A stretch of DNA of 18,454 bases from an uncultured bacterium (GCA_937889645.1 CALBZE010000083.1:1-18454), one strand, 5' to 3'. Positions 1 to 18,454 are shown, counted from the first letter of the stretch. Numbers and translations are program-made. The notes: generated by a model not told the origin, from the letters alone.

Positions 1-110
1 GGGCTCAGGGCCTAGGGCTCAGGGCCTAGGGCTCAGGGCCTGGGGCTCAGGGCCTGGGGCTCAGGGCTCAGGGCGTGGGGCTCGGGGCGGCGGCCGGGAT
101 TGCGGGCGGC
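1..110. repeat. G-rich tandem heptad array, (GGGCTCA/GGGCCTA/GGGCCTG) x about 13; left arm of composite repeat copy 1; G3N4 G-quadruplex motif on + strand
   Basis: Direct reading: gggctca gggccta gggctca gggccta ... in strict 7-nt register. Its reverse complement TGAGCCC is the heptad of the C-rich arm at 355-410. Confidence 0.9.
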
Positions 111-114
111 GTCG

Positions 115-320
115 GTGTGGAAACTTCCCGGGCGTGGGCGCGTGAATCGACAGTCGCTCGGTTTTCCCTCCCTAATGCGGAAATGCAGCAGGCGTGAACG
201 GGTGGGATGTTTGCCACGATATCTGTGCAAAAGTAGCGGGGAGGAAAAATGAGGGTGTTCCGTGCCGGGTTTGCACACGCCGGCGCCGGTGGAGGCGCCG
301 GAGGAGAGGCTTCGGCCGCC
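115..320 (+). repeat. Conserved core of about 205 bp of composite intergenic repeat, copy 1 (orientation A)
   Basis: Aligns by eye, block for block, with the reverse complements of 6092-6306 and 18205-18420. Shared blocks: gtggaaac, taatgcggaaatgcagcagg, gggtgggatgtttgccac, cggggagga, gtttgcacacgccggcgccggtggaggcgccgg, tttcggccgcc. Confidence 0.85.
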
Positions 321-354
321 TGGCGAGTCCCGCGCACCCCAACAACGCTCCGAC

Positions 355-410
355 ACCACCCTGAGCCCCAAGCCCCGAGCCCCGAGCCCCAACACCCGAC
401 ACCTACCCCC
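355..410. repeat. C-rich heptad array (CCCTGAG/CCCCGAG/CCCCAAG), right arm of repeat copy 1
   Basis: ccctgagccccaagccccgagccccgagccccaac...cccccc. This is the reverse-complement polarity of the 1-110 array, so the two arms are inverted repeats around the core. Confidence 0.8.
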
Positions 411-573
411 CAACCACCCGCGATACATCTCGTCCGCACGAGACCCTTCATGGCGCCGCACCCGTCAATGGCACGCCCTCTGAACTGGGAGACCATTCGT
501 GCGGCGGGGCGCGTGGGCGCGAGTCGTCGGCGTGGGGGTGGGGGTGTCGTAATCCTGGGCAAGGAAGGCGGGA

Positions 574-1128
574 ATGAGAGGATCGTGGCGAAACGGAGCG
601 GTGGTGCTGGCGCTCGTGGCGGGGTCGCTGGCGGTGGCGGTGCCGGGTCGGGCGCAGACGCCGCAGCCGGCGCCGCCGGTTCCGGACAGCGTGCGGCAGA
701 TGCTGATGGAGCTCCAGCGGGTGGGCGAGGAGCTGGAGCGGATCCAGGAGGCGACGCTGGCGGCGAACGAGGGGCTGAGACGGCAGCGGCAGTCGGTGCA
801 GGCGGCGGTGGAGCGGGCGATGGTGGAGGTGGACCCGCGGAGCCGGGGGCGCCTGGACCGGCTGCGGCAGATCGCCGGCGAGCTCCGGCAAGCGCAGGAA
901 CGGCAGGACACGGCGCGGGTGCAGGCGTTGATCGCGGAAGCGCAGCGGCTGCAGCAAGAGTTGCAGCCGGCGCAGGCGGCGGCGATGCAGCGCGAGGACG
1001 TGATGCGGCAGGTCCAGGCGTACCAGGAACGGCTTCTCGCGGCGATGCGGGCGCACGACCCGCGGACGGACGAGCTGATCGCGCGGCTCGAGTCGCTCGC
1101 CATGCGGCTCCAGGCGGCGTCGCCGTAA
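574..1128 (+). CDS. Secreted/periplasmic coiled-coil protein (signal peptide plus Q/R/A/E-rich helical repeats), function unknown
   Basis: ATG at 574 preceded by aaggaagg, a Shine-Dalgarno-like motif. N-terminus MRGSWRNGAVVLALVAGSLAVAVPGRAQT is signal-peptide-like. Strong GC3 bias. 184 aa. Confidence 0.6.
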   Translation: MRGSWRNGAVVLALVAGSLAVAVPGRAQTPQPAPPVPDSVRQMLMELQRVGEELERIQEATLAANEGLRRQRQSVQAAVERAMVEVDPRSRGRLDRLRQIAGELRQAQERQDTARVQALIAEAQRLQQELQPAQAAAMQREDVMRQVQAYQERLLAAMRAHDPRTDELIARLESLAMRLQAASP

Positions 1129-1200
1129 CGGCCGGGCGCCGTCGCGGCGGCGGTCTCGACTCGCGCGCGGTGCCGCGCGGCCGGAGCGCCGGGGCGGTCG

Positions 1201-2028: not shown

Positions 2029-2064
2029 GGCGCCCTTGCGCGGGCGCGCGGCCTGCGCGAGGAT

Positions 2065-3648
2065 ATGTTCATGCCGACATCCGACGCACGATCCGACACT
2101 CTCGAACACAACCCGTCGCCCGGCGAGACGGAATCGAGCGCGGCCGCGGGAACCCAGCCCGCGGCCGCTCGTCATGCCGAGCCGCCCTCGTCGGAGTCGC
2201 CGTCGTCCTCGCCCGAAGTCTCGGCGTCCGGTGGTGCGACGCCGCGGGGGGCGGGACGACGCTTCGACCGCTCGATCGTCGAAGGCCCCATCCTCCCGGC
2301 CGTCTGGAAGCTCGCCTGGCCGACGATGCTGCACAACCTGATCGGCGGACTGCAGGGGATGGTCGACCACGCGATGGTCGGCCATTTCGTGGGGTACACG
2401 GGGAACGCGGCGATCGGGGTGAGCCTTCAGATCTTCCTGGTCGTCGTCGTCTTCATCTCATCGCTGTACACGGGGATGGGCGTGTTGGTCGCCCGGTTCG
2501 CCGGCGCGGGCGACGAGGAGAAGGTGAACCGCACGGTCTACCAGGCGTTCATCACGTCCGCCGCGCTGTCGATCCTGGTCCTCGCGCCGGTCGGCTACTT
2601 CGCGGCGCCGGCGCTGCTCGGGCTGGTCAACGCCGCGCCGAAGGTGCAGGCGGAGGCGCTGCCGTACCTGCGGATCATGTTCCTGTGCAGCTTCGGCACG
2701 ATGTTCTTCTTCATGCTGGGCGGCGCGCTGCGTTCGGCGGGCGATGCCAGGACGCCGCTGCGGTACGGCGTGGTGGTGACGGTCGTGAACATCGCGCTGA
2801 ACGTGATCCTGATCCCGGGGCTGGGGCCGGTGCCGGCGCTGGGGACGGCCGGCGCGGCGATCGGGACGGCGCTGGCGACCGGGGGCGCGAGCCTGTACGC
2901 GCTCTACGCGCTACGCCGCGGGCGCTGGGTCGTCGCCTTCCCGCGCGGGATGAGCCTGAAGCCGGACTGGGAGGTGATCCGCGCGCTGTTCCGGTTCGGT
3001 CTACCGACGGGGATCCAGGGCGTGGCGATGAACGTGGGCGGGGTGCTGCTGCTGCGCTTCATCGGCTCGCTCGAGCAGAGCGCGGAGGCGCAGGCGGCTT
3101 ACGCCGTCGCCTACACGGAGATCTTCTCGCTCGTCAGCATGATGGCGATCGGGATCATGGGCGCGACGGCGGCGGTCGTGGGGCAGAACCTGGGCGCGCG
3201 GCGGGTCGACCGGGCGACGCGGGCGGTCTCGGTCGCGTCGCGGATCGGGCTTACCGGCGCGGGCACGCTCGGGCTGCTCTTCCTCACGATCCCGCACGTG
3301 CTGCTGGGCGCGTTCGGGATGACCGACCCGGGCGTCGCCGAGCTGGGCGTGCAGCTGCTGCGGTTCCTGACCGTCTCGAGCTTCTTCCTGACGCTGGCAC
3401 TCGTGTACACGGGCGGGCTGCAGGGGACGGGCGACACGAGGAGCCCGCTCTACATCTCGCTCATCTCGCAGATCGCCGTGCCGCTCGGGCTGTGCTACCT
3501 GTTCCAGCAGACGCGAGGGTTGGAGCCGGGCGACATCTGGCTCGCGATCATGCTCGGGCACATCACGCGCGGGACGCTGAGCGTGGGGCGGTTCAGGCAG
3601 GGGAAGTGGCGGGAGATCGTGGTGGACATCGGGCCGGCGCGGGCGTGA
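2065..3648 (+). CDS. MATE family efflux transporter (NorM/DinF-like) with an N-terminal low-complexity extension of about 75 aa
   Basis: gagga sits 8 nt upstream of the ATG. WPTMLHNLIGGLQGMVDHAMVGHFVG is a MATE N-terminal signature. About 12 hydrophobic segments. Residues 1-75 are S/P/E/A-rich and non-hydrophobic. Confidence 0.85.
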   Translation: MFMPTSDARSDTLEHNPSPGETESSAAAGTQPAAARHAEPPSSESPSSSPEVSASGGATPRGAGRRFDRSIVEGPILPAVWKLAWPTMLHNLIGGLQGMVDHAMVGHFVGYTGNAAIGVSLQIFLVVVVFISSLYTGMGVLVARFAGAGDEEKVNRTVYQAFITSAALSILVLAPVGYFAAPALLGLVNAAPKVQAEALPYLRIMFLCSFGTMFFFMLGGALRSAGDARTPLRYGVVVTVVNIALNVILIPGLGPVPALGTAGAAIGTALATGGASLYALYALRRGRWVVAFPRGMSLKPDWEVIRALFRFGLPTGIQGVAMNVGGVLLLRFIGSLEQSAEAQAAYAVAYTEIFSLVSMMAIGIMGATAAVVGQNLGARRVDRATRAVSVASRIGLTGAGTLGLLFLTIPHVLLGAFGMTDPGVAELGVQLLRFLTVSSFFLTLALVYTGGLQGTGDTRSPLYISLISQIAVPLGLCYLFQQTRGLEPGDIWLAIMLGHITRGTLSVGRFRQGKWREIVVDIGPARA

Positions 3649-4403
3649 CGGTGGTGGCGCTGGCCGGGTAGCGGCGGGGACCAGCGGCACGCTTCGCGTG
3701 CGGGCGCGGCCGCGCTGCGCGCGGCGGGGGGCGGCACCGCTTCGCGGCGCGGGGGGCAGCCGGCCGCTGGCGCGGCCGGCGGGAGGCGGCCCCTGCGGGG
3801 CGGGTGGCGGCGCCCTCGGCGCCGCGGGGGAGCCGCCTTCGGCGGCGGGTGGAGCCGGGCCTTCGGCCGGCGCGGGAGGGTGGCGGCCTGGCGGCCGCGG
3901 GGCGACGCGTTCACGATCCGGATGAGCAGATCCTCCGGCGCCTCCCAGCCGCCGAGCTGTTCCACGTCGCTGGCGTACCTGCCGTTGCCCGAGGCGTAGT
4001 ACACCTCCTGCATGGTCGCGAGGTTCTCGAGCGTGGAGCGGATCGTGGCCATCGTCTCGGCCGGCAGTGCGCGGGTCGGCTGCTCCTGGCCGGCCCCGTC
4101 GTCCGCGATCACGCGGGTGGGGGCGCGCTCCGCACCTTCCAGGGCGTAGAGCTCGAGGTACTCGACATCCATCTCTTCGCGGCCGGGCCGGCGGACCCAC
4201 AGGTGCCCCTGCGGGCTGACCTTCACGTACCGATAACCGACCTTCGGGTCCGGCGGCGGCAGCCGGTCGATCGCCGCGTGCACGACGCCGCGGCCACGAC
4301 CGAGTTCGCGGCCGTCGACCCAGCTCGGATCGTAGAGCCACTCGTCGAAGATGAAGCCGCGCCGCCGGCGCTCCCCTCTATTGCCGTCGCACGTCCAGCT
4401 CAC
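3495..4403 (-). CDS. Hypothetical protein; boundaries unresolved. Coding-like composition is confined to about 3906-4370, and the in-frame ORF reaches a stop only at 3495, after running through the hairpin array and 150 bp of the MATE 3' end
   Basis: Strong GC3 periodicity across FIFDEWLYDPSWVDG...ATMQEVYYASGNGRYASDVEQLGGWEAPEDLLIRIVNAS. No ATG is present; candidate GTG starts are at 4403 and 4283. The P/R/A-rich tail is encoded by the hairpin array and is probably not genuine. Confidence 0.3.
   Translation of the reverse strand: MSWTCDGNRGERRRRGFIFDEWLYDPSWVDGRELGRGRGVVHAAIDRLPPPDPKVGYRYVKVSPQGHLWVRRPGREEMDVEYLELYALEGAERAPTRVIADDGAGQEQPTRALPAETMATIRSTLENLATMQEVYYASGNGRYASDVEQLGGWEAPEDLLIRIVNASPRGRQAATLPRRPKARLHPPPKAAPPRRRGRRHPPRRGRLPPAAPAAGCPPRREAVPPPAARSAAAPAREACRWSPPLPGQRHHRHARAGPMSTTISRHFPCLNRPTLSVPRVMCPSMIASQMSPGSNPRVCWNR
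3680..3900. repeat. Array of 8-9 tandem GC-rich hairpins, each followed by a G-run (GGGNGG), in a convergent intergenic region
   Basis: Hairpins read directly: gcacgc-ttc-gcgtgc; gcgcggccgcgc (12-nt palindrome); ccgc-ttc-gcgg; gccggccgc-tggc-gcggccggc (9-bp stem); gcccc-tgc-ggggc; ggcgcc-ctc-ggcgcc; gccgcc-ttc-ggcggc; ggcc-ttc-ggcc; cggcc-tggc-ggccg. Each is followed by ggggg, gggtgg or gggagg. Confidence 0.7.
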
Positions 4404-4893
4404 CGCGCAGCAGCGTCGTCGGTCCGAAGGTCGGGCGGCCGAACGGGCCGGCGTCGACGGCGAACCGGCCGTCCAATCGGTACGCGACGGTGCGCTCGGT
4501 GAGGAAACGCACGGCGGCATCGGCCAGGCCGGGGACGTCGGCGAAGCTGATGGTGACGTCGATCGGGACGACGGTGTCCTGCTGCGCGCGGAGCGGGAGC
4601 CCGAGCGGGAGATCGACGGCCGCGGCGCGCGCGCCCTCGAGGAGCAGGTCGCCCTCCAGGGTGGAAAGGGTCAGGCCGAAGGCGTTGGGGTTCTGGACGC
4701 GCGTCCAGATGCGGATCGCGGCGCCGCCGAGCGGCCGGGTCGAGGACGGGCCGAGGAGGCGCAGCTCGGAGCGACGGTCTTCGGCCGCCTCGAAGCGCGG
4801 CGGCTCGACGCGGATCAGTTCGGAGACCGTCGCACAACCGGCCACGAGGAGCGCGGCGGCCAGCCAGAGGTGCGTATTCCGTTTCGGCATCAT
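4378..4893 (-). CDS. Lipoprotein with LEA-2 / WHy-like (late-embryogenesis-abundant 14-type) domain
   Basis: MMPKRNTHLWLAAALLVAGC has a lipobox LVAGC. An NPN-containing beta-rich domain (RVQNPNAFGLTLSTLEGDLLLEG...YRLDGRFAVDAG) resembles bacterial LEA_2 proteins. Confidence 0.55.
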   Translation of the reverse strand: MMPKRNTHLWLAAALLVAGCATVSELIRVEPPRFEAAEDRRSELRLLGPSSTRPLGGAAIRIWTRVQNPNAFGLTLSTLEGDLLLEGARAAAVDLPLGLPLRAQQDTVVPIDVTISFADVPGLADAAVRFLTERTVAYRLDGRFAVDAGPFGRPTFGPTTLLRGELDVRRQ

Positions 4894-4990
4894 GGAGTGC
4901 TCCGGTATGCGGAAGAGTGGCGCCCAGGCTCGTCTCGTGCCGCAGGGTCGCCGGGTCGTCGGGCCTCCGGGGTTTGCCGCGCGATCACGA

Positions 4991-5013
4991 CCGTGGCAAG
5001 TTATCGGCCACGG
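4991..5013. promoter_or_regulatory. Inverted repeat CCGTGGC-N9-GCCACGG with an AT-rich centre, in the divergent intergenic region between the LEA-like lipoprotein gene and the CPBP protease gene
   Basis: ccgtggcaagttatcggccacgg read directly. It lies 53-75 nt upstream of the CPBP ATG (5066) and about 100 nt upstream of the lipoprotein start (4893). Confidence 0.3.
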
Positions 5014-5065
5014 GACTGCGTCACCAGGCCCCGTCGCCGGAACCGAGGTACACACGAAGAGCGCA

Positions 5066-6022
5066 ATGGCGAATCGGACCGAACTCGCGACTGCCCAACG
5101 TAGGCGCCGACTCCGCCGCGCCCATCGACTCCCGGCCCTGCTGCTCGTTCTCGCCGTCGCGGCGCCGGTCGCGGCGCAGACGGCGGGCGACACGGTGCCC
5201 CGGAAGCCGAAGATCGGCGCGCAGTTCGTGATCCCGGCCGCGAGCATCGTTGCCCCCGGGCTCGGTCAGTACCTGCACGGTGCGTACTGGCCAGGCATGG
5301 GGTACACGGGCACGGCGGTCGGCGGGGCGGCGGTGGCCGCCTGGGCCGACGACGGCACGGGGTGGAGCGGCTTCCCGCGCCATGGGCGCGACCAGCTCGA
5401 GTACGAGGCGACGCACGTCGTCCAGTCGGCCGGGTTCCTCAGCGCGTGGGATGCGTTCCGGCGGGCGGTCCCGTCGCTGCAACGACAGGGGAAATACGAA
5501 TTCCTGACGACGCACGAGACGCTGGGCGACCTGCTCACGGCGCCGTTCGATCCCGAGTTCCTGCGTCGCCCGACGACGTGGGCGCACCTGGCGTACACCG
5601 GCCTCGTCGCCGCAATGGTGGTCAGCACGCGGCAATCGGGCGTCGCGTACGAGCCGTTCCGTGCGCAGGACGCGGCGTTTGCGACGTCGCTCTCGTACAA
5701 CGCCGGCGTGAGCGAGGAAGCGCTCTTCCGCGGGTGGCTGTTCCCGGTCCTGTACCAGAACATGGGCCAGCGGTTCTGGCTCTCGAACGCGGCCCAGGCC
5801 GGGATCTTCGGTGCGCTGCACCTCGAGCAGGCGGGCGCGTTCGCGGCGGCGATCACCGCGTGGGCGCTTTACGAAGGGTGGCTGACGCGCCGCAACGATT
5901 GGAGCATCCGGGAGTCGATCTTCCACCACTTCTGGTACGACGTGGCGGCGGTCGTGGTGCAGATGCTGGTGGAGGAGCGCGGCCGTGGGGTTGGGGTCAC
6001 GGTGCCGGTGGTGAGGTTTTGA
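5066..6022 (+). CDS. CPBP family intramembrane glutamic endopeptidase (CAAX protease / bacteriocin-processing family)
   Basis: Three CPBP motifs in order within hydrophobic segments: SEEALFRGWLF (EExxxR), AGIFGALHL (FxxxH), IFHHFWYDV (HxxxD/N). Signal/TM N-terminus. The TGA stop at 6020-6022 abuts the heptad array. Confidence 0.8.
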   Translation: MANRTELATAQRRRRLRRAHRLPALLLVLAVAAPVAAQTAGDTVPRKPKIGAQFVIPAASIVAPGLGQYLHGAYWPGMGYTGTAVGGAAVAAWADDGTGWSGFPRHGRDQLEYEATHVVQSAGFLSAWDAFRRAVPSLQRQGKYEFLTTHETLGDLLTAPFDPEFLRRPTTWAHLAYTGLVAAMVVSTRQSGVAYEPFRAQDAAFATSLSYNAGVSEEALFRGWLFPVLYQNMGQRFWLSNAAQAGIFGALHLEQAGAFAAAITAWALYEGWLTRRNDWSIRESIFHHFWYDVAAVVVQMLVEERGRGVGVTVPVVRF

Positions 6023-6055
6023 GGGCTCAGGGCTCAGGGCTCGGGGCTCAGGGGG
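6021..6055. repeat. G-rich heptad array (GGGCTCA x4), left arm of repeat copy 2
   Basis: gagggctcagggctcagggctcggggctcagggggg begins inside the stop codon of the CPBP gene. Confidence 0.85.
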
Positions 6056-6091
6056 GTGTCGGAGCGTTTTGGGGGTGCGCGAGACTCGCCG

Positions 6092-6306
6092 GGCGGCCGA
6101 AACCTCTCTTCCGGCGCCTCCACCGGCGCCGGCGTGTGCAAACGCAGCACGGAGCGCCCTCTGCGTACCTGCCCGCAATATTTGCGCATGTAGGGTGGCA
6201 AACATCCCACCCGTCTCCCGCCTGCTGCATTTCCGCATTAGGGAGGGCAAATCGAGCAAGCGTCCATTCACACGCCCACTCTTGGGATGTTTCCACACGA
6301 ACGTCG
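6092..6306 (-). repeat. Conserved core of composite repeat, copy 2 (reverse orientation relative to copy 1)
   Basis: The reverse complement of 6092-6306 aligns with 115-320. For example, ggcggccgaaacctctcttccggcgcctccaccggcgccggcgtgtgcaaac is the reverse complement of gtttgcacacgccggcgccggtggaggcgccggaggagaggcttcggccgcc. Confidence 0.85.
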
Positions 6307-6311
6307 CTGGC

Positions 6312-6458
6312 GCCCCCGGCCACCCCGGCCGCTGCCCCGTGCCCCGTGCCCCGTGCCCCGTGCCCCGTGCCCCGTGCCCCGTGCCCCGTGCCCCGAGCCC
6401 CGAGCCCCGAGCCCTGAGCCCTGAGCCCTGAGCCCCAAGCCCTGAGCCCCAAGCCCAA
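6312..6458. repeat. C-rich heptad array: (CCCCGTG)x8 perfect tandem, then (CCCCGAG)x3, (CCCTGAG)x3 and CCCCAAG/CCCTGAG variants; right arm of repeat copy 2
   Basis: Read directly: ccccgtg ccccgtg ... x8 without interruption, then ccccgag x3 ccctgag x3 ccccaag ccctgag ccccaag cccaag. The - strand carries G4-type G3-4N3-4 repeats. Confidence 0.9.
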
Positions 6459-6497
6459 GTACCCGCGGCGGCGGTCATCCGGAGCGTTGCCCTCCCC

Positions 6498-6998
6498 TCA
6501 ACCCAACCCGTCACACTCCTCCAACCTCCCAACCAAGCGTCGTGCGCTTTCCGGTGTGAGGTGCGCGAGGTGCTGGTTGGTGAATGTGGGGTCGTCGGTG
6601 ACCTCACGGAGGAGGGCGATTCCGGGTGGCGCGGGCGGGAGCGGCTCGTCGGGCGCGTCGAGCTCGACCTCCGCGATGGCGAGTCCCTCCAGGGGGCCAC
6701 GGAAGATGTCGATTTCCCACCGATCGATCACGTAGCGGACCTTCTCCAGCCGCCGGTCGCCCGCCAACTCGAAGAGTGCGCGGGCGGTCTCTTCGTCGAC
6801 GCCGATCTCTACCTCGCTCCGCACGCGGCCACGGCCGGCTTTGATCGTGAGCAGGTACTGACCGTCGCGGGCGCGGATGCGCACGGCCGGCTCGCCGCGG
6901 GTGATGTAGCCCTGGCGGATCTCGGCGCGGCGCGACGCCGTCCGCAGCACGTCCGGCTCGACGACGCGGCACAGGAAGCGACGTTCGATCTCGATCAT
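6498..6998 (-). CDS. CYTH-domain protein (triphosphate tunnel metalloenzyme; CyaB / thiamine-triphosphatase-like)
   Basis: N-terminal MIEIERRFL matches the CYTH EIERKFL signature. About 166 aa. Its start overlaps the stop of the upstream ATPase by ATGA at 6995-6998, indicating translational coupling. Confidence 0.7.
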   Translation of the reverse strand: MIEIERRFLCRVVEPDVLRTASRRAEIRQGYITRGEPAVRIRARDGQYLLTIKAGRGRVRSEVEIGVDEETARALFELAGDRRLEKVRYVIDRWEIDIFRGPLEGLAIAEVELDAPDEPLPPAPPGIALLREVTDDPTFTNQHLAHLTPESARRLVGRLEECDGLG

Positions 6999-10603: not shown

Positions 10604-11985
10604 GCGCCCTCCTTCTGCGCGAGCAGCTCGTCGAGTAGGAGCGCGGCCTGGCGCGCAAGCGCTCCAGCGGCGACGGCGCGGGCGTCGACGTCGTCGCCCA
10701 GGCCGAGGTAGGGCTTCGCGGCGTAGACGTCCTGGACCGCGGCGGCCGCGTCGCGGAGGAGCGGCTCCAAATCCTCCGACACCGCGACGCCGGCACCGAT
10801 CGGCGCGCCCGCGTCGGCCGGGGGCGCCGCCTTCCCCCTGCTCTCTCCTGCCGCACCGGCTGCGGTCGCCGCCTCATCCCTGCCCTCCCCGCCCGCCTCC
10901 AGCGCGAGCAGCAACCGCGCGAGCAACCCGACGGGGTCGTTCCCCTGTGCCAGCTCCGCCAGGTCGCGCGCCGGGCGAGTCCGGACCTCTACGCTCTCGA
11001 CGTACCCCGCGACCGGCCCGGAGCCGAGCTCGAGGTCGGTGCGGAGCGCCTCGAGCCGCGCGGCGATCGAGCGGTGCAGCGGCGTCCGGCCCACGACGCG
11101 GAGCCGGCAACTCAGGTGGCGGAGCGCGTCGCCGCCCGAGGCAACGTCCGCGAGGTGCGCACGCAGCGCCGTCGTCACGCGCCGGTCGACCTCCGCCGGG
11201 TCGGCCACGCCGTCGACATCGACCTCGACGGCGTCGTAGCGCACCGAGGAGAGCGGGACCATGCGCGCGCGGAACGAGCGCCCGGGCCCGACCTCCACGA
11301 TCCAGACGCCGTGCGCGCCCGGCTCGCCCGGGTCGAGCGCCTGCGGCGAGCCGGGGTAGAGGACTGGCGCGGCGCCGGGCTCCTCGAACAGCCGCGGCGC
11401 GTGGATGTGGCCGAGGAGCCAGAAGTCGACCGGCGCGGCGCGCAGCTCGGCGAGCGAGACAGGCGCATAGTCGCTCCCGGGCTGGTCGAGGTCGGCGTGG
11501 AGGAGGCCGAGGACGGGCGCGTCGTCGCCCGGCGAGCCGAGCGCGAACGAGCCGAGGGGGCTCTCGCGGACGCGCGCCTCCGGAAACGACCAGCCGACCA
11601 CATGGATTGCCTCGCCCCCGCGGCGTGCAGTCACCCGCTCCCAGCGCCCGCCGCGCCCCAGGAGCCGGAACCGGTCGCCGCCGAGCTCGTCGGCGAGGCG
11701 CGGGAAGACGTCGTGGTCGTGGTTGCCGGCGACGGCGACGGTCAGAATCCCGGCCTCGGCGAGGCGGCGGATCCCGGCCTCGAGCGGGCCGGTCGCCTCG
11801 TAGTACCGGTTCGCCTGGTCGACGACGTCGCCGCTCAGGGCGACGACGTCGACCTTCTCGGCGAGCGCGAGGTCGACGATCCGCGTCCAGCACGCGGCGC
11901 TCGAGACCTCGCGGCCGTCGACGTGCTCCGGCAGTCGCGCCGAGCGGCGGCCGATGTGAACATCACCGCAGCAGAGGATCTTCAC
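10600..11985 (-). CDS. SbcD/Mre11-like calcineurin-family metallophosphoesterase (DNA repair exonuclease subunit, YhaO-like)
   Basis: VKILCCGDVHIG, GDVVD, GNHD and GHIH motifs are the Mre11/SbcD phosphoesterase motifs I-IV. Stop and start overlap (ATGA) with the downstream ATPase at 10600-10603. Start chosen at the GTG at 11985 (VKIL...); the ORF track's alternative ATG at 12102 would add a 39-aa R/A-rich leader. Confidence 0.8.
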   Translation of the reverse strand: MKILCCGDVHIGRRSARLPEHVDGREVSSAACWTRIVDLALAEKVDVVALSGDVVDQANRYYEATGPLEAGIRRLAEAGILTVAVAGNHDHDVFPRLADELGGDRFRLLGRGGRWERVTARRGGEAIHVVGWSFPEARVRESPLGSFALGSPGDDAPVLGLLHADLDQPGSDYAPVSLAELRAAPVDFWLLGHIHAPRLFEEPGAAPVLYPGSPQALDPGEPGAHGVWIVEVGPGRSFRARMVPLSSVRYDAVEVDVDGVADPAEVDRRVTTALRAHLADVASGGDALRHLSCRLRVVGRTPLHRSIAARLEALRTDLELGSGPVAGYVESVEVRTRPARDLAELAQGNDPVGLLARLLLALEAGGEGRDEAATAAGAAGESRGKAAPPADAGAPIGAGVAVSEDLEPLLRDAAAAVQDVYAAKPYLGLGDDVDARAVAAGALARQAALLLDELLAQKEGA

Positions 11986-12156
11986 GGGCAGTCGGCTCGT
12001 GACGGTCGTGTGTTGCGGGGCGACGCGGGCCGCCTTGGCGCCCGGCCGGGGGGCGACGCGGCCGGTCCGGGCCCGCCGGGTCGCCTCCCCCTGGCGTCGC
12101 ACTCGCCCCCCAAGGTAGCGCGACCGGCTGACAACGGCACGGGTGGGGTCGCCCGG

Positions 12157-13671
12157 TCACCCGCCTTCCGCCCACCTCCGCACCAGCTCCGCCCCGCCGT
12201 GCATCCCCTGCGTCCCGATGAGCACGAGCAGGTCGCGGTCGCTGATGCGGTCGAGCGTGTGGCGGATCGCGTCGTCGAGGCGGTCGTGGTGCACGACGTC
12301 GACGCCGCCGACCCGCAGCGCGTCGAGGAACGCCTCGCGCTCGTCGTCGGCGACGCGGTTGGCGGCGTCCACGGCCTCGCGGCTGCTCGTCGCCGTCAGC
12401 GAGTCGAACCGCAGCCGACGCGACCAGATCGCGATGGTCTCGCCGTAGCGGCGGTTGAGCTCGACGCCGCGGCCGCCGCGGATCGCGGCGACGAGGTGTA
12501 CCCGGTTGCGGCGGAGCCCGGCGACAACGTCGAACAGGACGCAGAGCGCGTCGGGGTGCGTCGCGGTGTCGTCGAGGAGCGCGAAGCGGCCGCAGCGCTC
12601 GTACTGGAGCCGCCGCGGCGGCGGGCGCACGGCGGCGAGCCCTTCGCGGACCTGCTCCGGCGAAGCGCCCAGGCAGAGCCCGGCGACGGCCGCGAGCGCA
12701 GCGTTGCGCGCGTTCGACCGGCCGAGCAGCCCGAGCCCGATCGGGATGCGGCCGGGCGGGACCGTGCCGCCGTCGACCGTCGGGATCGGCCGGGCGACAT
12801 CCAGGAGAATGCTGCACCCGCGCGCGCCGTGGCGACGTCGCCGGACCCGCACGCTCGCGCCGCGGCCGGGGCCGCACGCCACGCCCGTGACCGGACTCGC
12901 CTCGACCAGCCGGCCGACGATCCGCTCGTCGCGCGGGTAGACGACGACGCCGTCCGGGCGGACGTGGTCGAGGAAGCGCGACTTCGCCTCGACATAGCGG
13001 CGGAAAGAGCCGTGGTAGTCCCCGTGCTCGAGGGGCGCGATGCAGGTGAAGACGCCGAGCGCGAAGTCGAGGCCGTGGATCCGGTCCTGGACCAGCCCCT
13101 GGCTGGTCACCTCCATGGCGCAGACGGTGCACCCCGCCGCGGCGACGCGGGCGAGTGCGTCGTGCAGCGCGAGGGGGTCCGGCGTGGTGAGCTGCTGCGG
13201 CTCGTGCGGCTCGCCGGGGAGCCGCATCCCGAGGAAGTCCGAGCCGATGATCCCCGCGCACACGCCGGCGCGCCCGAGGATCGCGTCGAGCATGTTCAGC
13301 GTCCCTGTCTTGCCGAACGAGCCGGTGATCCCGACGAGGCGGAGTCGCCGGCCAGGCCAGCCGTACCACGCGGCGGCCAGCTCGGCCAGGGCGCGGCGGG
13401 TGTCGGGCACGCGGAACGCCGGCGCCGCCGCATCGACCGCGGCGCCGTGCTCGACCACCACCGCCGCCGCGCCCCTCCGCACGGCCTCCCCCACGAACAG
13501 GTGCCCGTCGGTCCGGCGGCCGCGGAGCGCGACGAAGAGGTCGCCGGGCTCGACCTCCCGCGCGTCGAAGACGATGCGCCGCGCTCGGACCTCGCCCGCC
13601 CCGGCCGGCGCTTCGACGCCGGTGAGCCCGCGGAGCAGCGGGGCGACGGGGCGAGCAGGGCCGGGGCGCAT
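12157..13671 (-). CDS. Mur ligase family protein, MurE/MurF-type (UDP-N-acetylmuramoyl-peptide ligase-like)
   Basis: N-terminal domain FDAREVEPGDLFVALRGRRTDGHLFVGEAVRRGAAAVVVE matches the MurE/F pattern DSRxVxxGDLFVAxxGxxxDGHxF...GAxA. ATP-binding LVGITGSFGKTGT is present. The C-terminal LLDDTATHPDA is a divergent version of DDSYNANP. Start MRPGPARP at 13671. Confidence 0.7.
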   Translation of the reverse strand: MRPGPARPVAPLLRGLTGVEAPAGAGEVRARRIVFDAREVEPGDLFVALRGRRTDGHLFVGEAVRRGAAAVVVEHGAAVDAAAPAFRVPDTRRALAELAAAWYGWPGRRLRLVGITGSFGKTGTLNMLDAILGRAGVCAGIIGSDFLGMRLPGEPHEPQQLTTPDPLALHDALARVAAAGCTVCAMEVTSQGLVQDRIHGLDFALGVFTCIAPLEHGDYHGSFRRYVEAKSRFLDHVRPDGVVVYPRDERIVGRLVEASPVTGVACGPGRGASVRVRRRRHGARGCSILLDVARPIPTVDGGTVPPGRIPIGLGLLGRSNARNAALAAVAGLCLGASPEQVREGLAAVRPPPRRLQYERCGRFALLDDTATHPDALCVLFDVVAGLRRNRVHLVAAIRGGRGVELNRRYGETIAIWSRRLRFDSLTATSSREAVDAANRVADDEREAFLDALRVGGVDVVHHDRLDDAIRHTLDRISDRDLLVLIGTQGMHGGAELVRRWAEGG

Positions 13672-13675
13672 CGCA

Positions 13676-15775
13676 TCACCTCGCGGGCGGCGGGGTGGCA
13701 GCGGGGACCGCGAGCGTGTCGGTCGCGACGCGTGGCCGGGCCCGGCCCCTCGGCCGCGGCCGCGGCGTGCCACACGCGACGTCGCGCACCGTGGTCGCCA
13801 GGAAGTACTCGGTGCGGGCGACGCCGTCGAAGACGCAATCGGGGCGGTAAACGCGCCCGGCATCGTCGACGCGCAGCTCGAGCACCGACGCCGGCATCGC
13901 CCACCCCGCCTCGCCCCGTGGCGCGATGCGTCGCATGATCCGACCCCAGAGCCTAGGCGCGACGCGGTCGCCCGCCGTGCCCCGGATGATCGGCCGCGGC
14001 AGGTCGAACCCGATCCACACGACCGCGACCCGGCTCGGCGTATACCCCGCGAACCAGTAGTCGACCGAGTTGTTGGTCGTGCCGGTCTTCCCGGCCGCGG
14101 GGCCGCGGTACCCCGCGAGCCGCACGGCGGTGCCGGTCCCACGGTCGACCACGTCGCGCAGGATGTCCGTGATCAAGAAGGCGACGCCGGGGTCGAGCAC
14201 GGCCTCGACCTTCGGGTCCTGACGCCAGACCTCGGTGCCGTCCGGGCGCCGGACGACCGACACGATGCGCGGCTCCGGCCGGCTGCCGAGGGTCGCGAAC
14301 GCGGCGTACGCGGCGGCCAGCTCGAGCGGCGTCGCCTCCGCGATCCCGAGCGCGAGCGACGGGACGCGCGGGAACGGGCCGCGCAGCCCCATCCGCCCGG
14401 CGAGCTCCGCGACGCGGTCGAAGCCGACCGCCTCGGCCAGCCGGATCGTCGCCGTGTTGCTCGAGACGACGAGCGCATCGCGCAGCGAGATCGACTCCGC
14501 GTAGCGGCCGTCGTAGTTGCGCGGCGCCCAGACCCGCCCGCCGCCCAGGTCGCGGCGGATCGGCGAGTCGTCCAGCTGGTCCGCGGGCGAGTAGCCGGCC
14601 ATGATCGCGGCGGCGTAGATGAACGGCTTGAACGTGCTCGCCGGCTGGCGCCACGCGCCGACCGCGCGGTTGAAACGCGAATGCGAGAAGTCCCGCCCGC
14701 CGACCATCGCGAGGACGTCGCCCGTCGCCGCGTCCAGCACCAGGACCGCGCCCTGGAGGTACGGCGTGCCGTCCGGGCGGGCGGCCGCGGTGTCGTCGTA
14801 GACGGGGTGCTCCCAGGGGCCGTACTGCCCGGCTTCCATCTCCGCGAGGAGCGCGCGCAGCTCGGCCTCGGCGACCGCCTGGGCCCGCGCGTCCAGCGTC
14901 GTGTGGATCGTGTAGCCGCCGGCGTAGAGCGCGTCGCCGATCTCGCGCTCCATGTAGTTGCGGACCTCCTCGACGAAGTACGGCGCGAGGTCGCCGGCGT
15001 CGGCCGTCGCCTCCGCGGTCACGAGCGGCGCGTCGTCCGCTTCGTTCGCTTCGTCCTCCGTGATCAACCCCTGCCGCCACATCTGGTGCAGCACGACCCA
15101 ACGCCGGCGATACGCGAGGACCGGGTTGCGGTGCGGGTCGAGCTGGTTCGGCGCGGTGACCATCCCGGCGAGGAGCGCGGCCTCGGCCAGGGTGAGCGTC
15201 GACGCCGGCTTGCGAAAGTATTCGCGCGCAGCCGCCTCGATCCCCCACGCGCCGCGGCCGAAATAAATATGGTTCAGGTACAGCTCGAGGATCTGGCGCT
15301 TGGTGTAACGCTCCTCGATCGCCGTCGCGACGCGCATTTCCGCGAGCTTGCGGCCGAGCGTGCGTTCGGTGTACGGAAGCCGGTCGGGGAACGCGTTGCG
15401 GGCGAGCTGCATGGTGATCGTGCTGAACCCTTGCCGGACGCCGAGCGAGCGGACGTTGGCGAGGAGCGCGCCGAAGGCGCGTCGCCAGTCGATCCCGCTG
15501 TGCTGCCAGAAGCGCTGGTCCTCGATCGCGACGAACGCCGCGGGTACGTGGGGCGGGAGGGAGTCGAGGGGGATGATCTCGCGCTGGACGACGTAGAGCC
15601 GGGCGAGTTCTACACCGTTGCGGTCGAGGACGACGGCCGCGCGGTCCGGCACGTACCCGTCCAGCCGTTCGATCTCCGGGCACCCCCCCACGCCGCACCG
15701 CTGCCAGAGCAACCAGGCCAGGCCGGCGAGGGAGAGCACTCCCAGGAATCCAATGATGCGTGGCCGGGTGGGCAA
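13676..15775 (-). CDS. Class A penicillin-binding protein (PBP1A; GT51 transglycosylase plus transpeptidase)
   Basis: N-terminal TM anchor. GT51 motifs EDQRFWQHSGID and TITMQLARNAF. Transpeptidase motifs STFKP (SxxK), SSN and KTGT. Confidence 0.9.
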   Translation of the reverse strand: MPTRPRIIGFLGVLSLAGLAWLLWQRCGVGGCPEIERLDGYVPDRAAVVLDRNGVELARLYVVQREIIPLDSLPPHVPAAFVAIEDQRFWQHSGIDWRRAFGALLANVRSLGVRQGFSTITMQLARNAFPDRLPYTERTLGRKLAEMRVATAIEERYTKRQILELYLNHIYFGRGAWGIEAAAREYFRKPASTLTLAEAALLAGMVTAPNQLDPHRNPVLAYRRRWVVLHQMWRQGLITEDEANEADDAPLVTAEATADAGDLAPYFVEEVRNYMEREIGDALYAGGYTIHTTLDARAQAVAEAELRALLAEMEAGQYGPWEHPVYDDTAAARPDGTPYLQGAVLVLDAATGDVLAMVGGRDFSHSRFNRAVGAWRQPASTFKPFIYAAAIMAGYSPADQLDDSPIRRDLGGGRVWAPRNYDGRYAESISLRDALVVSSNTATIRLAEAVGFDRVAELAGRMGLRGPFPRVPSLALGIAEATPLELAAAYAAFATLGSRPEPRIVSVVRRPDGTEVWRQDPKVEAVLDPGVAFLITDILRDVVDRGTGTAVRLAGYRGPAAGKTGTTNNSVDYWFAGYTPSRVAVVWIGFDLPRPIIRGTAGDRVAPRLWGRIMRRIAPRGEAGWAMPASVLELRVDDAGRVYRPDCVFDGVARTEYFLATTVRDVACGTPRPRPRGRARPRVATDTLAVPAATPPPAR

Positions 15776-15848
15776 GTGGCGTACCCCCTGGGTCGCGGCG
15801 GAGTCGGTGCTTCGGTGGGGGTATGCGGCAAGGGGGATACCAGGGGGA

Positions 15849-15981
15849 GGGCTCGGGGGTTCAGGGCATAGGGCTTGGGGCTCAGGGCTCAGGCGGGCGT
15901 CCGCCGGAGGCGGCGGGCCGTTCCCTGAGCCCTAGGCCCTGAGCCCTAGGCCCTGAGCCCTAGGCCCTAGCTCTAGGCCCC
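15849..15981. repeat. Solo (coreless) copy of the composite repeat: a G-rich heptad arm, a spacer of about 30 nt, then a C-rich heptad arm, forming a long imperfect inverted repeat
   Basis: gggctcgggggttcagggcatagggcttggggctcagggctcagg | cgggcgtccgccggaggcggcgggccgtt | ccctgagccctaggccctgagccctaggccctgagccctaggccctagctctaggcccc. The arms are heptad-level reverse complements. Confidence 0.85.
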
Positions 15982-16011
15982 GGGGGCGGCGGTGCGGGGG
16001 GATGCCCCCGC

Positions 16012-17343
16012 TCAGTCGCCGCCAGCCACGACCGGCTCCTTCTCCGCCGGCGCGCCCACCCGCCGGGTGGCGGCGCGGAGGATCTCCTCGACGCTGATGC
16101 CGTACGTCGCCGCGAACTGCTCGAGAATCGAGACGGCGGCGAGCACTTTTTGGTTCGCCGCGTTGGCGAGGCCGTGGCCGTCGCCGGAGTCGACGACGAC
16201 GAGGCGTTCGACGTCCATGTCGCGGACGGCGTCGGCGGTGAGGCCGAGCAGTTGCGGGAGCTTTTCGGCGATGAAGATCGCGAAGCCGTTCGGGCCGCTC
16301 TCGATCTGTTCGCGGAGCGCGCGGAGCGCTTCGGCCTGCGCGCGGCCGGTCTCGATGATCGGCGCGGCGGCGGCCTTGGCGCGGGCCTCGGCGGCCTGGC
16401 GCTCGGCCTCGGCGGGCGCGACGACGTCGGCGGCGAGGCGCTGGCGTTCGGTCTCGACGCGGCGCGCCTCGAGCTCGCGGCGGGCCTCGATCTCGGCCTG
16501 CTCGGCGGCGACGCGGGCGAGGCGCTCGGCGGTCTCGGCGTCGCGGGCGAGCTCGGCCTGGCGCACGCGCAGGCGGTTCTGTGCCTCGGCGATCCGGATC
16601 GCGGCCTCGGCCTCGGCCGTCTCGGCCATCTGCCGGTACTCGGCCTGCATGCGACGGGTCTCGGCCTCGTTCTCGGCCTCGGCGACCTCCGCCTCCTTCT
16701 TCACGATCGCGGTCTTCTTGCGGCCGATCGCATCCAGGTAGCCGGCCTCGTCGGAGACGTTCTGGATCTTCAGCACGTCGAGCGAGAAGCCGAGTTTCTT
16801 GAGGTCCTCCTCCGCCTCGGCGGCTAGGCTCTCCGCGAACTTGAGCCGGTTCTCGTTGACCTCCTCGGGCGTCAGGGTGGCGAGTACGCCGCGCAGGTTA
16901 CCCATCAGCGTCTCGCGCGCGAGCGCGGCGATCTCGCCCTCGCTCTTCCCGAGCAGCCGCTCGACCGCGTTGTTGAAATCCGTCTCCGGCTCCGACGCGA
17001 TCTTCACGTTCGCGATCGCCTGCACCGTGAGCGGGATGTTCCCCTTGGAGAAGGCGTTCGAGACCGTCAGTTCGAGCGGGATCGTCTCGAGCGACAGGTG
17101 CTGGACCCGCTCGATGATCGGGATGCGCAGCGTGCTCCCGCCGATCACGGTGCGGTAGCCGACGATCTGGCCGTCGGGGAGACGTCGCTTGCGGCCCGTG
17201 ATCACCGCCGCCTCGTTCGGCGGCACGATGACGATCAGGCTCTTGATCGCCAGGATCAGGAACAGCACGGCGACGAGGACGACGACGCCGCCGACGATGC
17301 CGACGTTCCCGATGCTCTCCAGGATCTGCTCCATCGCCTGCAC
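16012..17343 (-). CDS. floT: Flotillin-like SPFH/band-7 domain protein (FloT/YuaG-like)
   Basis: N-terminal TM/hairpin. SPFH domain (IVPPNEAAVITGRKRR...LTVQAIANVKI). Long EA-rich coiled coil (AEVAEAENEAETRRMQAEY...). Typical flotillin C-terminus. ggag sits upstream of the ATG. Confidence 0.85.
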   Translation of the reverse strand: MQAMEQILESIGNVGIVGGVVVLVAVLFLILAIKSLIVIVPPNEAAVITGRKRRLPDGQIVGYRTVIGGSTLRIPIIERVQHLSLETIPLELTVSNAFSKGNIPLTVQAIANVKIASEPETDFNNAVERLLGKSEGEIAALARETLMGNLRGVLATLTPEEVNENRLKFAESLAAEAEEDLKKLGFSLDVLKIQNVSDEAGYLDAIGRKKTAIVKKEAEVAEAENEAETRRMQAEYRQMAETAEAEAAIRIAEAQNRLRVRQAELARDAETAERLARVAAEQAEIEARRELEARRVETERQRLAADVVAPAEAERQAAEARAKAAAAPIIETGRAQAEALRALREQIESGPNGFAIFIAEKLPQLLGLTADAVRDMDVERLVVVDSGDGHGLANAANQKVLAAVSILEQFAATYGISVEEILRAATRRVGAPAEKEPVVAGGD

Positions 17344-17432
17344 TCCGGTTCAGAGTGTGAATCCGGGGCGGGTCATGCCCCCGTTCCAAAGCTTCGAGGA
17401 GGGCGCGGCGCGAACCGCCGCGTCGATGCCGA

Positions 17433-17978
17433 TCACGCGTTCGGCTCCTCGAGCGGAGCGACGAGCGCCGTGCCGTCCTCGATCGCGACCACGACGACGC
17501 GGGTCCAGCGCTCCGACCCGGGCGCGTCGGGGTCGAAGGCGCGTGCGCGGAGCTCGAACTCGCGGTTGCCGCGTCGCACGACCACGCGCCCGGACCGGTC
17601 CCGGGCGAGGGCGAGCGAGACGCGGCCCGTCGTGCCGACGAAGCTCTCGTCGGACGGGCGCGTGCCGCTGTCGTGCCTGCGCACGTAGGCGAATGCCGCC
17701 GCCGCGAGGGCGACGGACGTGAAGCCGACGGCGGCTGCGACAATCGCGGCGAGCGCCGATCGCGCACCGCCCCACATCCATTCGAGGAGCAGCCCCGTCG
17801 CGCCGAACGCGAAGACGAAGTAGGTGGCGTTGCGGATCGAGAAGATCCGGAACGCGTCGGTGTCGTCGACGTCGATGTCGGCATCGGCGTCCACGGCGCC
17901 GCCGAAGACATCGCCGAGGGCGGACACGGCGAGGAGACCGCCGCCGACGATCAACGAGAACCAGTAGAGTCCTTCCAT
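17433..17978 (-). CDS. NfeD-like membrane protein (YuaF-like flotillin partner) with a C-terminal OB-fold-like domain
   Basis: N-terminal hydrophobic helices. C-terminal GTTGRVSLALARDRSGRVVVRRGNREFELRARA resembles the NfeD beta-barrel. Sits immediately upstream of flotillin, as in yuaF-floT. Confidence 0.65.
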   Translation of the reverse strand: MEGLYWFSLIVGGGLLAVSALGDVFGGAVDADADIDVDDTDAFRIFSIRNATYFVFAFGATGLLLEWMWGGARSALAAIVAAAVGFTSVALAAAAFAYVRRHDSGTRPSDESFVGTTGRVSLALARDRSGRVVVRRGNREFELRARAFDPDAPGSERWTRVVVVAIEDGTALVAPLEEPNA

Positions 17979-18128
17979 ACGTCGAGCGCCGCGCCGACGA
18001 GGTGTCCCGGTGCTCGCGCGGTCGGCACCGGCGGGACACGCCCTGTCTGGCAGGAGAGGCAGGGCGGAGTTGGTTGGAATATGGGATGATGTGTGTGGGG
18101 GCGCTACGGGGCGGCGGACGGTCTGGGG

Positions 18129-18166
18129 GGTCAGGGCTCAGGGCCTAGGGCTCGGGGCTCAGGGGG
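18129..18166. repeat. G-rich heptad array (GGGCTCA/GGGCCTA), left arm of repeat copy 3
   Basis: ggtcagggctcagggcctagggctcggggctcagggggg. Confidence 0.85.
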
Positions 18167-18204
18167 GCATGGGAACGTTCCAGGGGGTACCCCGGTCTTG
18201 CCGT

Positions 18205-18420
18205 GCGGCCGAAACGTGGCACCCGGCGCCTCCGCCGGCGCCGGCGTGTGCAAACTCAGCACGGAGCGCCCTCTGCGTTCCTCCCCGTTATATTTTTGCG
18301 CATATGGGGTGGCAAACATCCCACCCGTCTCCCGCCTGCTGCATTTGCACGTTAGCGGGGGCAAATCGAGCAAGCGCCTATTCACTCGCCCACGCCTGCC
18401 AAGTTTCCACACCAACGTCG
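18205..18420 (-). repeat. Conserved core of composite repeat, copy 3 (reverse orientation, same as copy 2)
   Basis: Near-identical to 6092-6306 apart from small indels. For example, cggccgaaac...ggcgcctccgccggcgccggcgtgtgcaaac...ggtggcaaacatcccacccgtctcccgcctgctgcattt...gcaaatcgagcaagcg...tttccacac. Confidence 0.85.
18287..18315 (-). promoter_or_regulatory. Candidate sigma70-type promoter inside repeat core copy 3: TTGCCA -17 nt- TATAAC on the - strand, directed toward nfeD-floT
   Basis: - strand -35 is the complement of tggcaa at 18310-18315. The -10 is the complement of gttata at 18287-18292, and the spacer is exactly 17 nt. This is the only AT-rich patch in the region. The homologous positions in copies 1 and 2 are degenerate (TAGCGG; TATTGC with 15-nt spacer). 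Confidence 0.4.
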
Positions 18421-18454
18421 CCCGCGCCCCCGCCCCCCCGCCCCCCCGCCCCCC
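18421..18454. repeat. C-rich (CCCCCCG)n tract, right arm of repeat copy 3 (truncated by the window end)
   Basis: cgcccccgcccccccgcccccccgcccccc. Confidence 0.7.

Follow-up and report, generated by a model that had tools for sequence, protein, structure and literature searches.

A stretch of 18,454 nucleotides from an uncultured bacterium (GCA_937889645.1, CALBZE010000083.1:1-18454), referred to here in its entirety as the window, contains four intergenic elements in which tandem arrays of a G-rich heptamer and of C-rich counterparts face each other as the arms of a long potential hairpin. Three of the four enclose a conserved, non-coding core of about 260 bp. At orthologous gene ends in relatives, paired arms persist while their repeat unit turns over, and the core is found in one orientation, in the other, or not at all. 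The elements are interpreted here as two layers, namely repeat-armed hairpins that would act at gene boundaries and a non-coding passenger core nested in them, a joint reading that stands about evenly balanced between right and wrong. Judged by its PBP1A protein, the source organism is an uncultured, soil-type, Longimicrobiales-like member of the Gemmatimonadota; the best loci by amino-acid identity of this protein are L019 (90%), L018 and L022 (87%), and L020 (77%).

Anatomy of the four elements

The elements occupy positions 1-420 (copy 1), 6022-6458 (copy 2), 15848-15981 (copy 3) and 18125-18454 (copy 4). An earlier interpretation made without any comparison, termed below the sequence-only reading, had placed four copies here, and both direct reading and Tandem Repeats Finder recover them. 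Copies 1, 2 and 4 bear the core (n=3) and copy 3 is coreless. The elements measure 130-440 bp, and all of their arrays are intergenic. Tandem Repeats Finder delimits period-7 arrays at 1-74, 364-392, 6022-6053, 6334-6456, 15848-15893, 15929-15980 and 18127-18164 and an 8-mer array at 18421-18454, with copy numbers of 4.1-17.6 and the units GGGCTCA, GGGCCTA, GGGGCAC and GGGGGGGC. A two-heptad probe (at most two mismatches) finds 28 matches in the window, every one within the four elements, against 0.28 expected. Arm length ranges from 26 to 123 bp, and the unit, a heptamer or an octamer, varies between copies. Because independent JGI, ENA and Logan assemblies span copy 1 (L003), copy 2 (L099, L101 and L105), copy 3 (L098) and copy 4 (L109), the elements are not assembly artefacts.

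Copy 1 lies on the + strand. Its long 5′ G-array of GGGCTCA, GGGCCTA and GGGCCTG heptads (1-95) is cut by the window start and is followed by the core in forward orientation (96-358) and by a short 3′ C-array (359-420), in which CCCTGAG, CCCCAAG and CCCCGAG units decay into ACACCCGACACCT. Copy 2 lies on the - strand. Its short arm (6022-6053), the 3′ C-array of the element, reads as a G-array on the + strand and begins on the last base of the stop codon of a CPBP gene (TGA, 6020-6022), so that the element does start inside this stop, as had been noticed. The core follows in reverse on the + strand (6054-6333), and then the long arm (6334-6458), the element's 5′ G-array, with 17.6 units of GGGGCAC and then GGGCTCG/GGGCTCA, 40 nt past the stop of a CYTH gene.

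The coreless copy 3 consists of a left G-arm (15848-15893, +), a GC-rich spacer or loop of ~35 nt (15894-15928) and a right C-arm (15929-15981, +), with RNA fold z-scores of -5.4 and -7.4. Read on the - strand, it begins ~30 nt after the stop of an SPFH gene (16012), and its far end directly precedes the PBP1A gene's sigma-54-like promoter. Its spacer has no significant similarity to the core; the idea that it is a core reduced by deletion was rejected, local alignment scores being within the range of shuffled sequence. Copy 4, again on the - strand, has its short arm, the 3′ C-array, at 18125-18164, ~150 nt upstream of the start of an NfeD-SPFH operon (17978). Its core, in reverse on the + strand, spans 18165-18420, and its distal array, (GGGGGGGC)n on the element strand, is an octamer array cut by the window end (18421-18454).

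The two arms of an element are asymmetric, and the asymmetry is tied to the orientation of the core. On the 5′ side of the core is the long G-array, which measures at least 95 bp in copy 1 and 123 bp in copy 2; on the 3′ side is the short C-array, of ~32-40 bp.

Complementary arms at orthologous gene ends

Upstream of the PBP1A gene, the window carries (GGGCCTA/GGGCTCA)n, a 35-nt spacer and (TGAGCCC)n. At the same place, L019 has (GGTCTCA/GGTCTTG)n and (TGAGACC/CCTAACC)n, with ~30-50 nt between them according to where the arm boundaries are drawn, and L018, whose contig ends there, has the C-side arm only, (CCTGATA)7, the complement of which has only G2 runs. A second site lies between the stop of an NhaC gene and a chlorite-dismutase-like (Cld) gene, and is the only one at which a chimeric query for three loci yielded relatives (NhaC matches dominated). 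Here L005 has GGGCTYR arms around a forward core, L116 (95% NhaC identity) a coreless (AGGTGTC)6-12 nt-(CTGACAC)6 pair, and L118 (87%) a long degenerate G-array with a diverged core in reverse and no C-arm. In L123 and L125 (82-85%), the site is occupied by a hexamer hairpin, (GCGTAM)n-GGRAAACC-(KTACGC)n. Plain GC hairpins replace the arrays at the same place in relatives, as at the 5′ end of L116 and at 170-250 of L118. On these comparisons, what is conserved is a hairpin whose tandem-repeat arms complement each other, and not G3 runs or quadruplexes.

The sequence-only reading had described each arm as a quadruplex motif. Every array in the window indeed fits the canonical form G3+N1-7 with at least four repeats, the left arm on the + strand and the right arm on the - strand. 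With the polarity always G-first, polymerase arriving from either side would meet G-rich non-template DNA, and a bidirectional barrier of quadruplexes or R-loops can be envisaged; analogous heptads of Xanthomonas form quadruplexes in vitro (PMC4692102). However, at the orthologous sites the inverted pair persists with units free of G3 runs (GGTCTCA, AGGTGTC, GCGTAM and the L018 unit), and complementarity is what is conserved. Since G3 runs are not, the quadruplex potential appears to be specific to the unit of this genome rather than selected. The motif is thus present in every arm here without defining the element, and a quadruplex barrier is improbable.

Across ~1.29 Mb of fetched loci, Tandem Repeats Finder returned 15 rows of complementary array pairs, corresponding to ~11 distinct loci after assemblies are collapsed, and 15/15 are arranged G-left/C-right. 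This order reads alike on both strands and is therefore a real polarity rule, as invariant as had been proposed. Inverted period-7 pairs also occur in distant Gemmatimonadales and Longimicrobiaceae (two in L033, two in L049 and one in L047), with the unit GGGGACA/TGTCCCC and between genes of an operon. Coreless arm pairs are, by this distribution, wider and older than the core. Hairpins formed by the array pairs far exceed shuffled sequence in stability (z = -4.4 to -7.7). One intergenic period-7 pair, at 3008-3189 of L069, is an exception to the rule of complementary arms: (CAGTAAY)8, 92 nt and (CCGACTA)5, the latter ending at a start codon, do not complement each other.

Sequence and content of the core

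The conserved core measures ~260 bp (window 96-358), more than the 215 bp first assigned to it, and the copy 1 core is matched by nhmmer at E=2e-80. The three window cores align at 78-84% identity with copy 1 on the + strand and copies 2 and 4 reverse-complemented, and the alignment thus upholds the claim that the core runs one way in copy 1 and is flipped in the others. With L005 included, the four close core loci are 78-84% identical and roughly equidistant. Variable columns are spread evenly over the codon positions (23/26/24), and one- and two-bp indels break every long frame between copies; the core is therefore non-coding, in keeping with the earlier statement that it holds no conserved open reading frame (ORF). 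Searches with pseudo-proteins translated from its forward and reverse frames, for mis-called ORFs on other copies, found nothing.

A 16-nt box, CSTGCNNNRTTTSCNC (at most one mismatch), occurs 10 times in the window, always within the three cores, against 0.63 expected. The boxes are in both orientations, at 177-192 (-) and 261-276 (+) in copy 1, at 6136-6151 (-), 6172-6187 (+), 6221-6236 (+) and 6245-6260 (-) in copy 2, and at 18248-18263 (-), 18335-18350 (+), 18359-18374 (-) and 18395-18410 (+) in copy 4. The diverged core of L118 has four, three direct copies at 60-62-nt spacing and one inverted. Because L118 keeps the layout of the boxes while the sequence between them has diverged, the boxes are suggested to be functional parts of the core, most simply predicted protein-binding sites. 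The core also has two imperfect palindromes of 22 nt, TTTGCC-N10-CGSAAA, whose starts are 49 nt apart, and an 11-nt inverted repeat, CGTGTGGAAAC...GTTTGCACACG, that flanks its central part. A check by eye for parS, DnaA-box, dif, integration host factor (IHF) and sigma-54 sites in the core gave no convincing match. In L116, core half-sites TTTGCCAC and GCGCAAAT lie at 30-75, upstream of a cystathionine-synthase-like gene, with a spacer of 20 nt instead of 10 nt, and L005 carries the C-array tail of an element at the matching site; these half-sites may be a remnant or an independent putative binding site.

A box pattern of this kind is typical of protein-binding DNA, and the core might be a regulatory cassette that carries operator- or enhancer-type sites or a promoter ahead of operons, with the arrays as an upstream terminator or insulator. 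Copies 1 and 4 do point at adjoining downstream operons (hyp-rhomboid-MatE and NfeD-SPFH), and besides the two palindromes, the putative motifs GGAAAC-N16/17-GTGAAT and TTGCCA-N15-17-TAnnnC can be read in the alignment. These promoter-like motifs are by-eye readings only, though, and a strict scan of the three core-bearing elements (copy 3 was outside it) detects neither sigma-70 promoters nor U-tract terminators within them. Moreover, copy 2 faces the 3′ end of a convergent gene, and the L118 core is inverted relative to that of L005 at the same site, so that orientation to the genes is not fixed. A regulatory cassette is thus an unlikely explanation.

Alternatively, the element could act as RNA: the arrays would pair as a stem like those of rRNA processing, and cleavage by RNase III would release the core as a small or processed RNA and separate the messages. 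When full elements are folded, the arms pair around the core, with z-scores of -7.0 (copy 2) and -2.1 (copy 1), and forward-strand RNA is the more stable strand in 4/4 copies. All four close copies have an invariant 8-bp GC hairpin, CCGGCGCC-GGYGGA-GGCGCCGG (280-301 in copy 1, with the loop GGTGGA). The long G-array alone nevertheless explains the strand asymmetry, and the L118 homologue lacks both the invariant hairpin and the C-arm. Rfam 15 gives no core match at the gathering score and only chance-level matches at E up to 10, so that the comparison proposed with known structured RNAs ended with no family matched. In the consensus fold, compensatory pairs number 3/67 on the forward and 3/61 on the reverse strand, and several candidate helices are broken without compensation. 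There is no support here for a conserved RNA structure, from four sequences with little power, and release of a functional core RNA is held to be quite unlikely.

Dispersal, gain and loss of the core

The core is a dispersed family, as had been supposed, represented at four loci or more and, within the data reached, confined to a narrow lineage. An 18-mer from its most conserved block gave 14 matches in JGI metagenome contigs. Only L005 is a true copy, and the others are chance matches in low-GC contigs. L005, a 3.3-kb contig of 72% GC, carries a G-array, core and C-array directly after its NhaC gene and, at its other end, the C-array tail of a second element. The diverged copy, L118, belongs to a relative with 87% identity in the adjacent NhaC protein. 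A core profile run with nhmmer against ~1.3 Mb of Gemmatimonadota and Acidobacteriota loci matched only the same population, L005 and later L118. The gapped pattern GGGATGTTTGCCAC-N40-66-TTTGCACAC had 0 matches in genome contigs (one genome per GTDB species), and viral contigs, plasmids and phages gave no core match. The start of the L018 contig was considered as a core remnant and set aside, the alignment being unconvincing.

At the CPBP/CYTH site, L018 is fully syntenic from PBP1A to CPBP and has 34 nt between the two stops, versus the 437-bp copy 2 of the window. Since this site is empty in L018 and the NhaC site has the core forward, reversed or absent, the core, and sometimes the whole element, is seen from these comparisons to be gained, lost and flipped over 5-13% protein divergence. 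The search for strain differences that had been proposed thus yields polymorphism in presence and in orientation between relatives. Length varies on a finer scale. In L099 and L101, copy 2 has a long arm with five heptads (exactly 35 bp) fewer, while core and flanks match those of the window but for one SNP, and this reflects either true variation of the variable-number-tandem-repeat type or assembly collapse. In L001 (1-172), a Logan contig of the copy 1 locus, the 5′ part of the core resembles copy 2 and the 3′ part copy 1, with the switch inside a 33-nt block invariant in all copies; the contig is either an ectopic recombinant or a chimera of k-mer assembly (k=31).

Small size (<500 bp), intergenic location, inverted arms and the presence or absence of an entire element at the CPBP/CYTH site relative to L018 recall a classical MITE (miniature inverted-repeat transposable element). 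The heptad arrays would be its terminal inverted repeats (TIRs), and a transposase encoded elsewhere would cut and paste arms and core together; the direct and inverted internal boxes resemble multiple transposase-binding sites. The sequence-only reading likewise saw a TIR-bounded mobile module, a view that the copies themselves do not bear out. No fixed termini are discerned in them: the arms vary in length and unit, as described above. Neither copy 2 nor copy 3 is directly flanked by a direct repeat, and no target-site duplication is discernible elsewhere; the empty site of L018 shares no alignable spacer, so that exact junctions cannot be set. The copies are 16-22% diverged rather than near-identical, and array pairs that lack the core are both widespread and of greater age than it. 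The data searched yielded no related transposase, and in them plasmids, phages and viral contigs have nothing similar to the core (the genome of the organism itself lay outside the search). Cut-and-paste transposition of a classical MITE is hence considered doubtful.

Proposed gene-boundary hairpins with a passenger core

The two-layer reading treats the arms and the core separately. The first layer is the inverted pair of tandem arrays, always with the G-rich arm 5′ and the C-rich arm 3′, on either strand, the arms of which can pair as a long hairpin in a single strand or as a cruciform in duplex DNA. The elements are placed 0-40 nt past stop codons, or else in the gap that separates a stop from the promoter after it. 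Their sites coincide with expected transcript ends, as anticipated from their location at operon boundaries: the convergent ends of CPBP and CYTH, the gap between the SPFH stop and the PBP1A start, and positions upstream of two operons. The divergent LEA_2/CPBP promoter gap is without an element. This absence, the stop-proximal starts, and the plain hairpins that substitute for arrays in relatives argue for a gene-boundary role, which might consist in 3′-end formation or protection or in insulation of transcription units.

The arms probably evolve by replication slippage, as length polymorphism suggests, and arm-to-arm template switching, or quasipalindrome correction, would keep them complementary while the unit drifts. 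Template switching of this kind is an established mutational mechanism. Quadruplex potential would be a by-product of the unit in use in this genome.

The second layer is the core, ~260 bp of non-coding DNA in the hairpin loop, with at least 4-5 boxes in both orientations and the invariant 8-bp GC hairpin. It behaves as a non-autonomous passenger, and close relatives differ by its gain, loss and inversion within array pairs. Homologous recombination or gene conversion, for which the arrays would supply portable homology, is the most likely means of its spread. Recombination is the simplest route because the arms provide tens of identical bp at many loci and are inverted to each other, an arrangement that would also allow the core to flip. 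A protein that binds the boxes and moves the core would be an alternative within the same reading. The core behaves like a bacterial interspersed mosaic element (BIME) or a MITE and is probably spread by recombination.

Several observations weigh against this reading. The antisense strand outfolds the sense RNA in 7/9 coreless pairs, a set that includes window 15845-15985, L019, L033, L116, L123 and L125, because mismatched positions in these pairs read A-C on the sense RNA but G-U on the antisense RNA. This asymmetry is opposite to that expected from selection on a sense-RNA hairpin, and the role may instead lie at the DNA level, as a cruciform or a template-strand hairpin. In copy 4, the distal arm is an octamer, (CCCCCCCG)n, and is not the reverse complement of the proximal heptad arm. 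The proposal that the arms are reverse complements therefore holds to the extent that they pair into long stems, but fails for this copy and overlooks the unequal arm lengths. At the copy 2 site, L018 has neither arrays nor core. Arms and core were gained or lost together there, an event that resembles transposition more than it does conversion into a pair already in place. No U-tract follows the hairpins in the scan of the three core-bearing elements. Finally, the conservation of the boxes rests on few sequences (four close core copies and one diverged), and the clustering of invariant core positions is modest (P = 0.024).

The reading can also be carried further, to a mobile element that dispenses with transposase. 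The arms would then serve as shared homology, the passenger would be copied from loop to loop and flipped through its own arms, and the box array would serve a dedicated DNA-binding protein. The hairpins themselves would be the gene-boundary signal of the clade, kept complementary by template switching. This extended version is offered tentatively, with clearly less confidence than the two-layer reading itself.

Genomic context

The window has a GC content of 73%, and its genes were called from GC content at third codon positions (GC3), from Pfam and from gene tables that accompany identical contigs. Downstream of copy 1 lies an operon on the + strand that encodes a 174-aa hypothetical protein (604-1128), a rhomboid protein (1201-2028) and a MatE protein (2071-3648). 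It is followed on the - strand by genes for a 302-aa hypothetical protein (3495-4403) and an LEA_2 protein (4378-4893), and on the + strand by the CPBP/Rce1-like gene (5066-6022). Beyond copy 2, all genes are on the - strand: CYTH (6498-6998), SbcC (6995-10603), SbcD (10600-12102), a Mur ligase (about 12157-13700), PBP1A (about 13676-15775) and, past copy 3, SPFH (16012-17343) and NfeD (17433-17978).

Both ends of the window fall within arrays, as do the ends of nearly all contigs of this population, which occurs in the data sets DRR731770-75, ERZ777003, ERZ27254884 and JGI 3300027664, 3300009095 and 3300002531. When identical proteins were used to follow the window beyond its ends in other assemblies, every contig stopped in the repeats. 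Because nearly all contigs break in arrays, many copies per genome are suggested. Repeat-armed elements thus disrupt short-read assemblies of this lineage, in which nearly all recovered contigs end at such elements.

Further features of these loci were recorded. Just upstream of the PBP1A gene, a sigma-54-type -24/-12 motif, CTGGTATCCCCCTTGCC, with GG-N10-GC spacing occupies window 15826-15842 (- strand) and is the sole match in the window (0.02 expected). It also occurs at 106-122 of L018, 228-244 of L019, 109-125 of L098, about 9922-9938 of L020 and about 2721-2736 of L021. Relatives with protein identity as low as 60% still conserve it, L020 having CTGGCATCCGCCTTGCC and L021 GTGGAACTGCCCTTGCT. 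In four relatives (L116 about 3090-3100, L118 about 3862-3872, L123 about 10670-10680, and L125), the region ~75-190 nt upstream of the Cld-like gene holds a conserved TGTACATT motif. It resembles an extended -10 promoter element (TGn-TACATT), a likeness that suggests ordinary promoters of sigma-70 type in the clade. Just after the MatE stop and within the - strand gene for the 302-aa protein, window 3601-3900 reaches 85% GC and holds ~5 copies of 23-25-nt tandem repeats, GGGGGCGGCCGCGCTGCGCGCGGCG. ARAGORN reports a 92-nt tRNA-Ala(CGC) at 8628-8719 (+), inside the SbcC coding region but on the opposite strand; in DNA this GC-rich the call is almost certainly spurious. The operon for SbcCD, a hairpin and palindrome nuclease (6995-12102), adjoins long palindromic elements, and large loops and imperfect arms could be why SbcCD tolerates them.

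Implications and comparison with known systems

Gemmatimonadota are abundant in soils and almost unstudied genetically, and to our knowledge nothing has been reported on how their transcription units end. The orthologous sites form a natural series in which a hairpin is kept at gene ends while its arms are rewritten between tandem units, heptamer or hexamer. Such a series separates selection on structure from selection on sequence or on quadruplex formation, and the argument also bears on the unexplained heptamer repeats of Xanthomonas and Nostoc. If the core does move between loops through arm homology, it would exemplify a simple, transposase-independent dispersal of non-coding DNA.

The closest counterpart to the arms is the family of G-rich heptamer repeats, GGGAATC and GGGGA(C/T)T, described in Xanthomonas and Nostoc by Rehm et al. 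2015 (PMC4692102). Xanthomonas genomes hold 70-75 'convergent' inverted pairs each, with the pair type preserved between species, and repeats of this type, with the unit GGGNATC, show a strong preference for four units (PMC4692102). The elements described here share with them intergenic tandem heptamers with G3+ runs, array lengths that vary highly between close relatives, convergent inverted pairs whose G-rich strand is the coding strand, directly past the stop codon, and rarity between divergent genes (PMC4692102). They differ in their GGGCTCA-like unit, with complete turnover between relatives, in having 4-18 units with no preference for four, and in their phylum, Gemmatimonadota; many of the present pairs also enclose the conserved 260-bp core, for which Xanthomonas and Nostoc have no counterpart. 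The claim that the family is undescribed consequently needs to be divided: paired G-rich heptamer arrays of the same polarity and gene position are known from Xanthomonas, and the core and composite architecture appear to be new.

BIMEs of E. coli are built from repetitive extragenic palindromic (REP) units, as in BIME-1/RIP, which carries an IHF site between inverted REPs, and proposed roles include mRNA 3′ stabilisation, termination and topology. As in BIMEs, inverted hairpin-forming units here flank a conserved, putative protein-binding motif in an extragenic mosaic at the 3′ ends of transcription units. In contrast, the arms are simple heptad tandem repeats in which no REP unit (an imperfect palindrome of 20-40 nt headed by a conserved GT[AG]G) was seen, and the internal module is ~260 bp rather than ~30 bp, with no sequence similarity.

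Bacterial MITEs with internal structure, such as Correia/NEMIS of Neisseria, BOX of pneumococcus and ERIC, can carry promoters or processing sites, and BOX contains a variable number of internal tandem modules. The present elements resemble them in being small, non-coding, dispersed and intergenic, with inverted ends and presence/absence differences between close strains. They depart from them in their 16-22% divergence, in the lack of discernible TIR termini or target-site duplication, and in the position of the repeated part, which lies at the ends and not inside; coreless arm pairs are, in addition, independent and phylogenetically wider.

GC hairpins that lack a U-tract ('I-shaped') have been proposed as terminators in high-GC bacteria in the mycobacterial and actinobacterial literature. 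The likeness consists in stable GC-rich hairpins right after stop codons, with no T-run, in DNA of 73% GC; the three core-bearing regions scanned for canonical intrinsic terminators (copy 3 was outside the scan) have the hairpins and no T/U tract. Unlike I-shaped hairpins, the stems described here are tandem repeats of 30-120 nt with large loops, and termination is only a candidate role. A literature search found no description of such elements in Gemmatimonadota. With a core and a composite architecture that appear undescribed, the elements appear to be a variant of the intergenic mosaic repeat theme.

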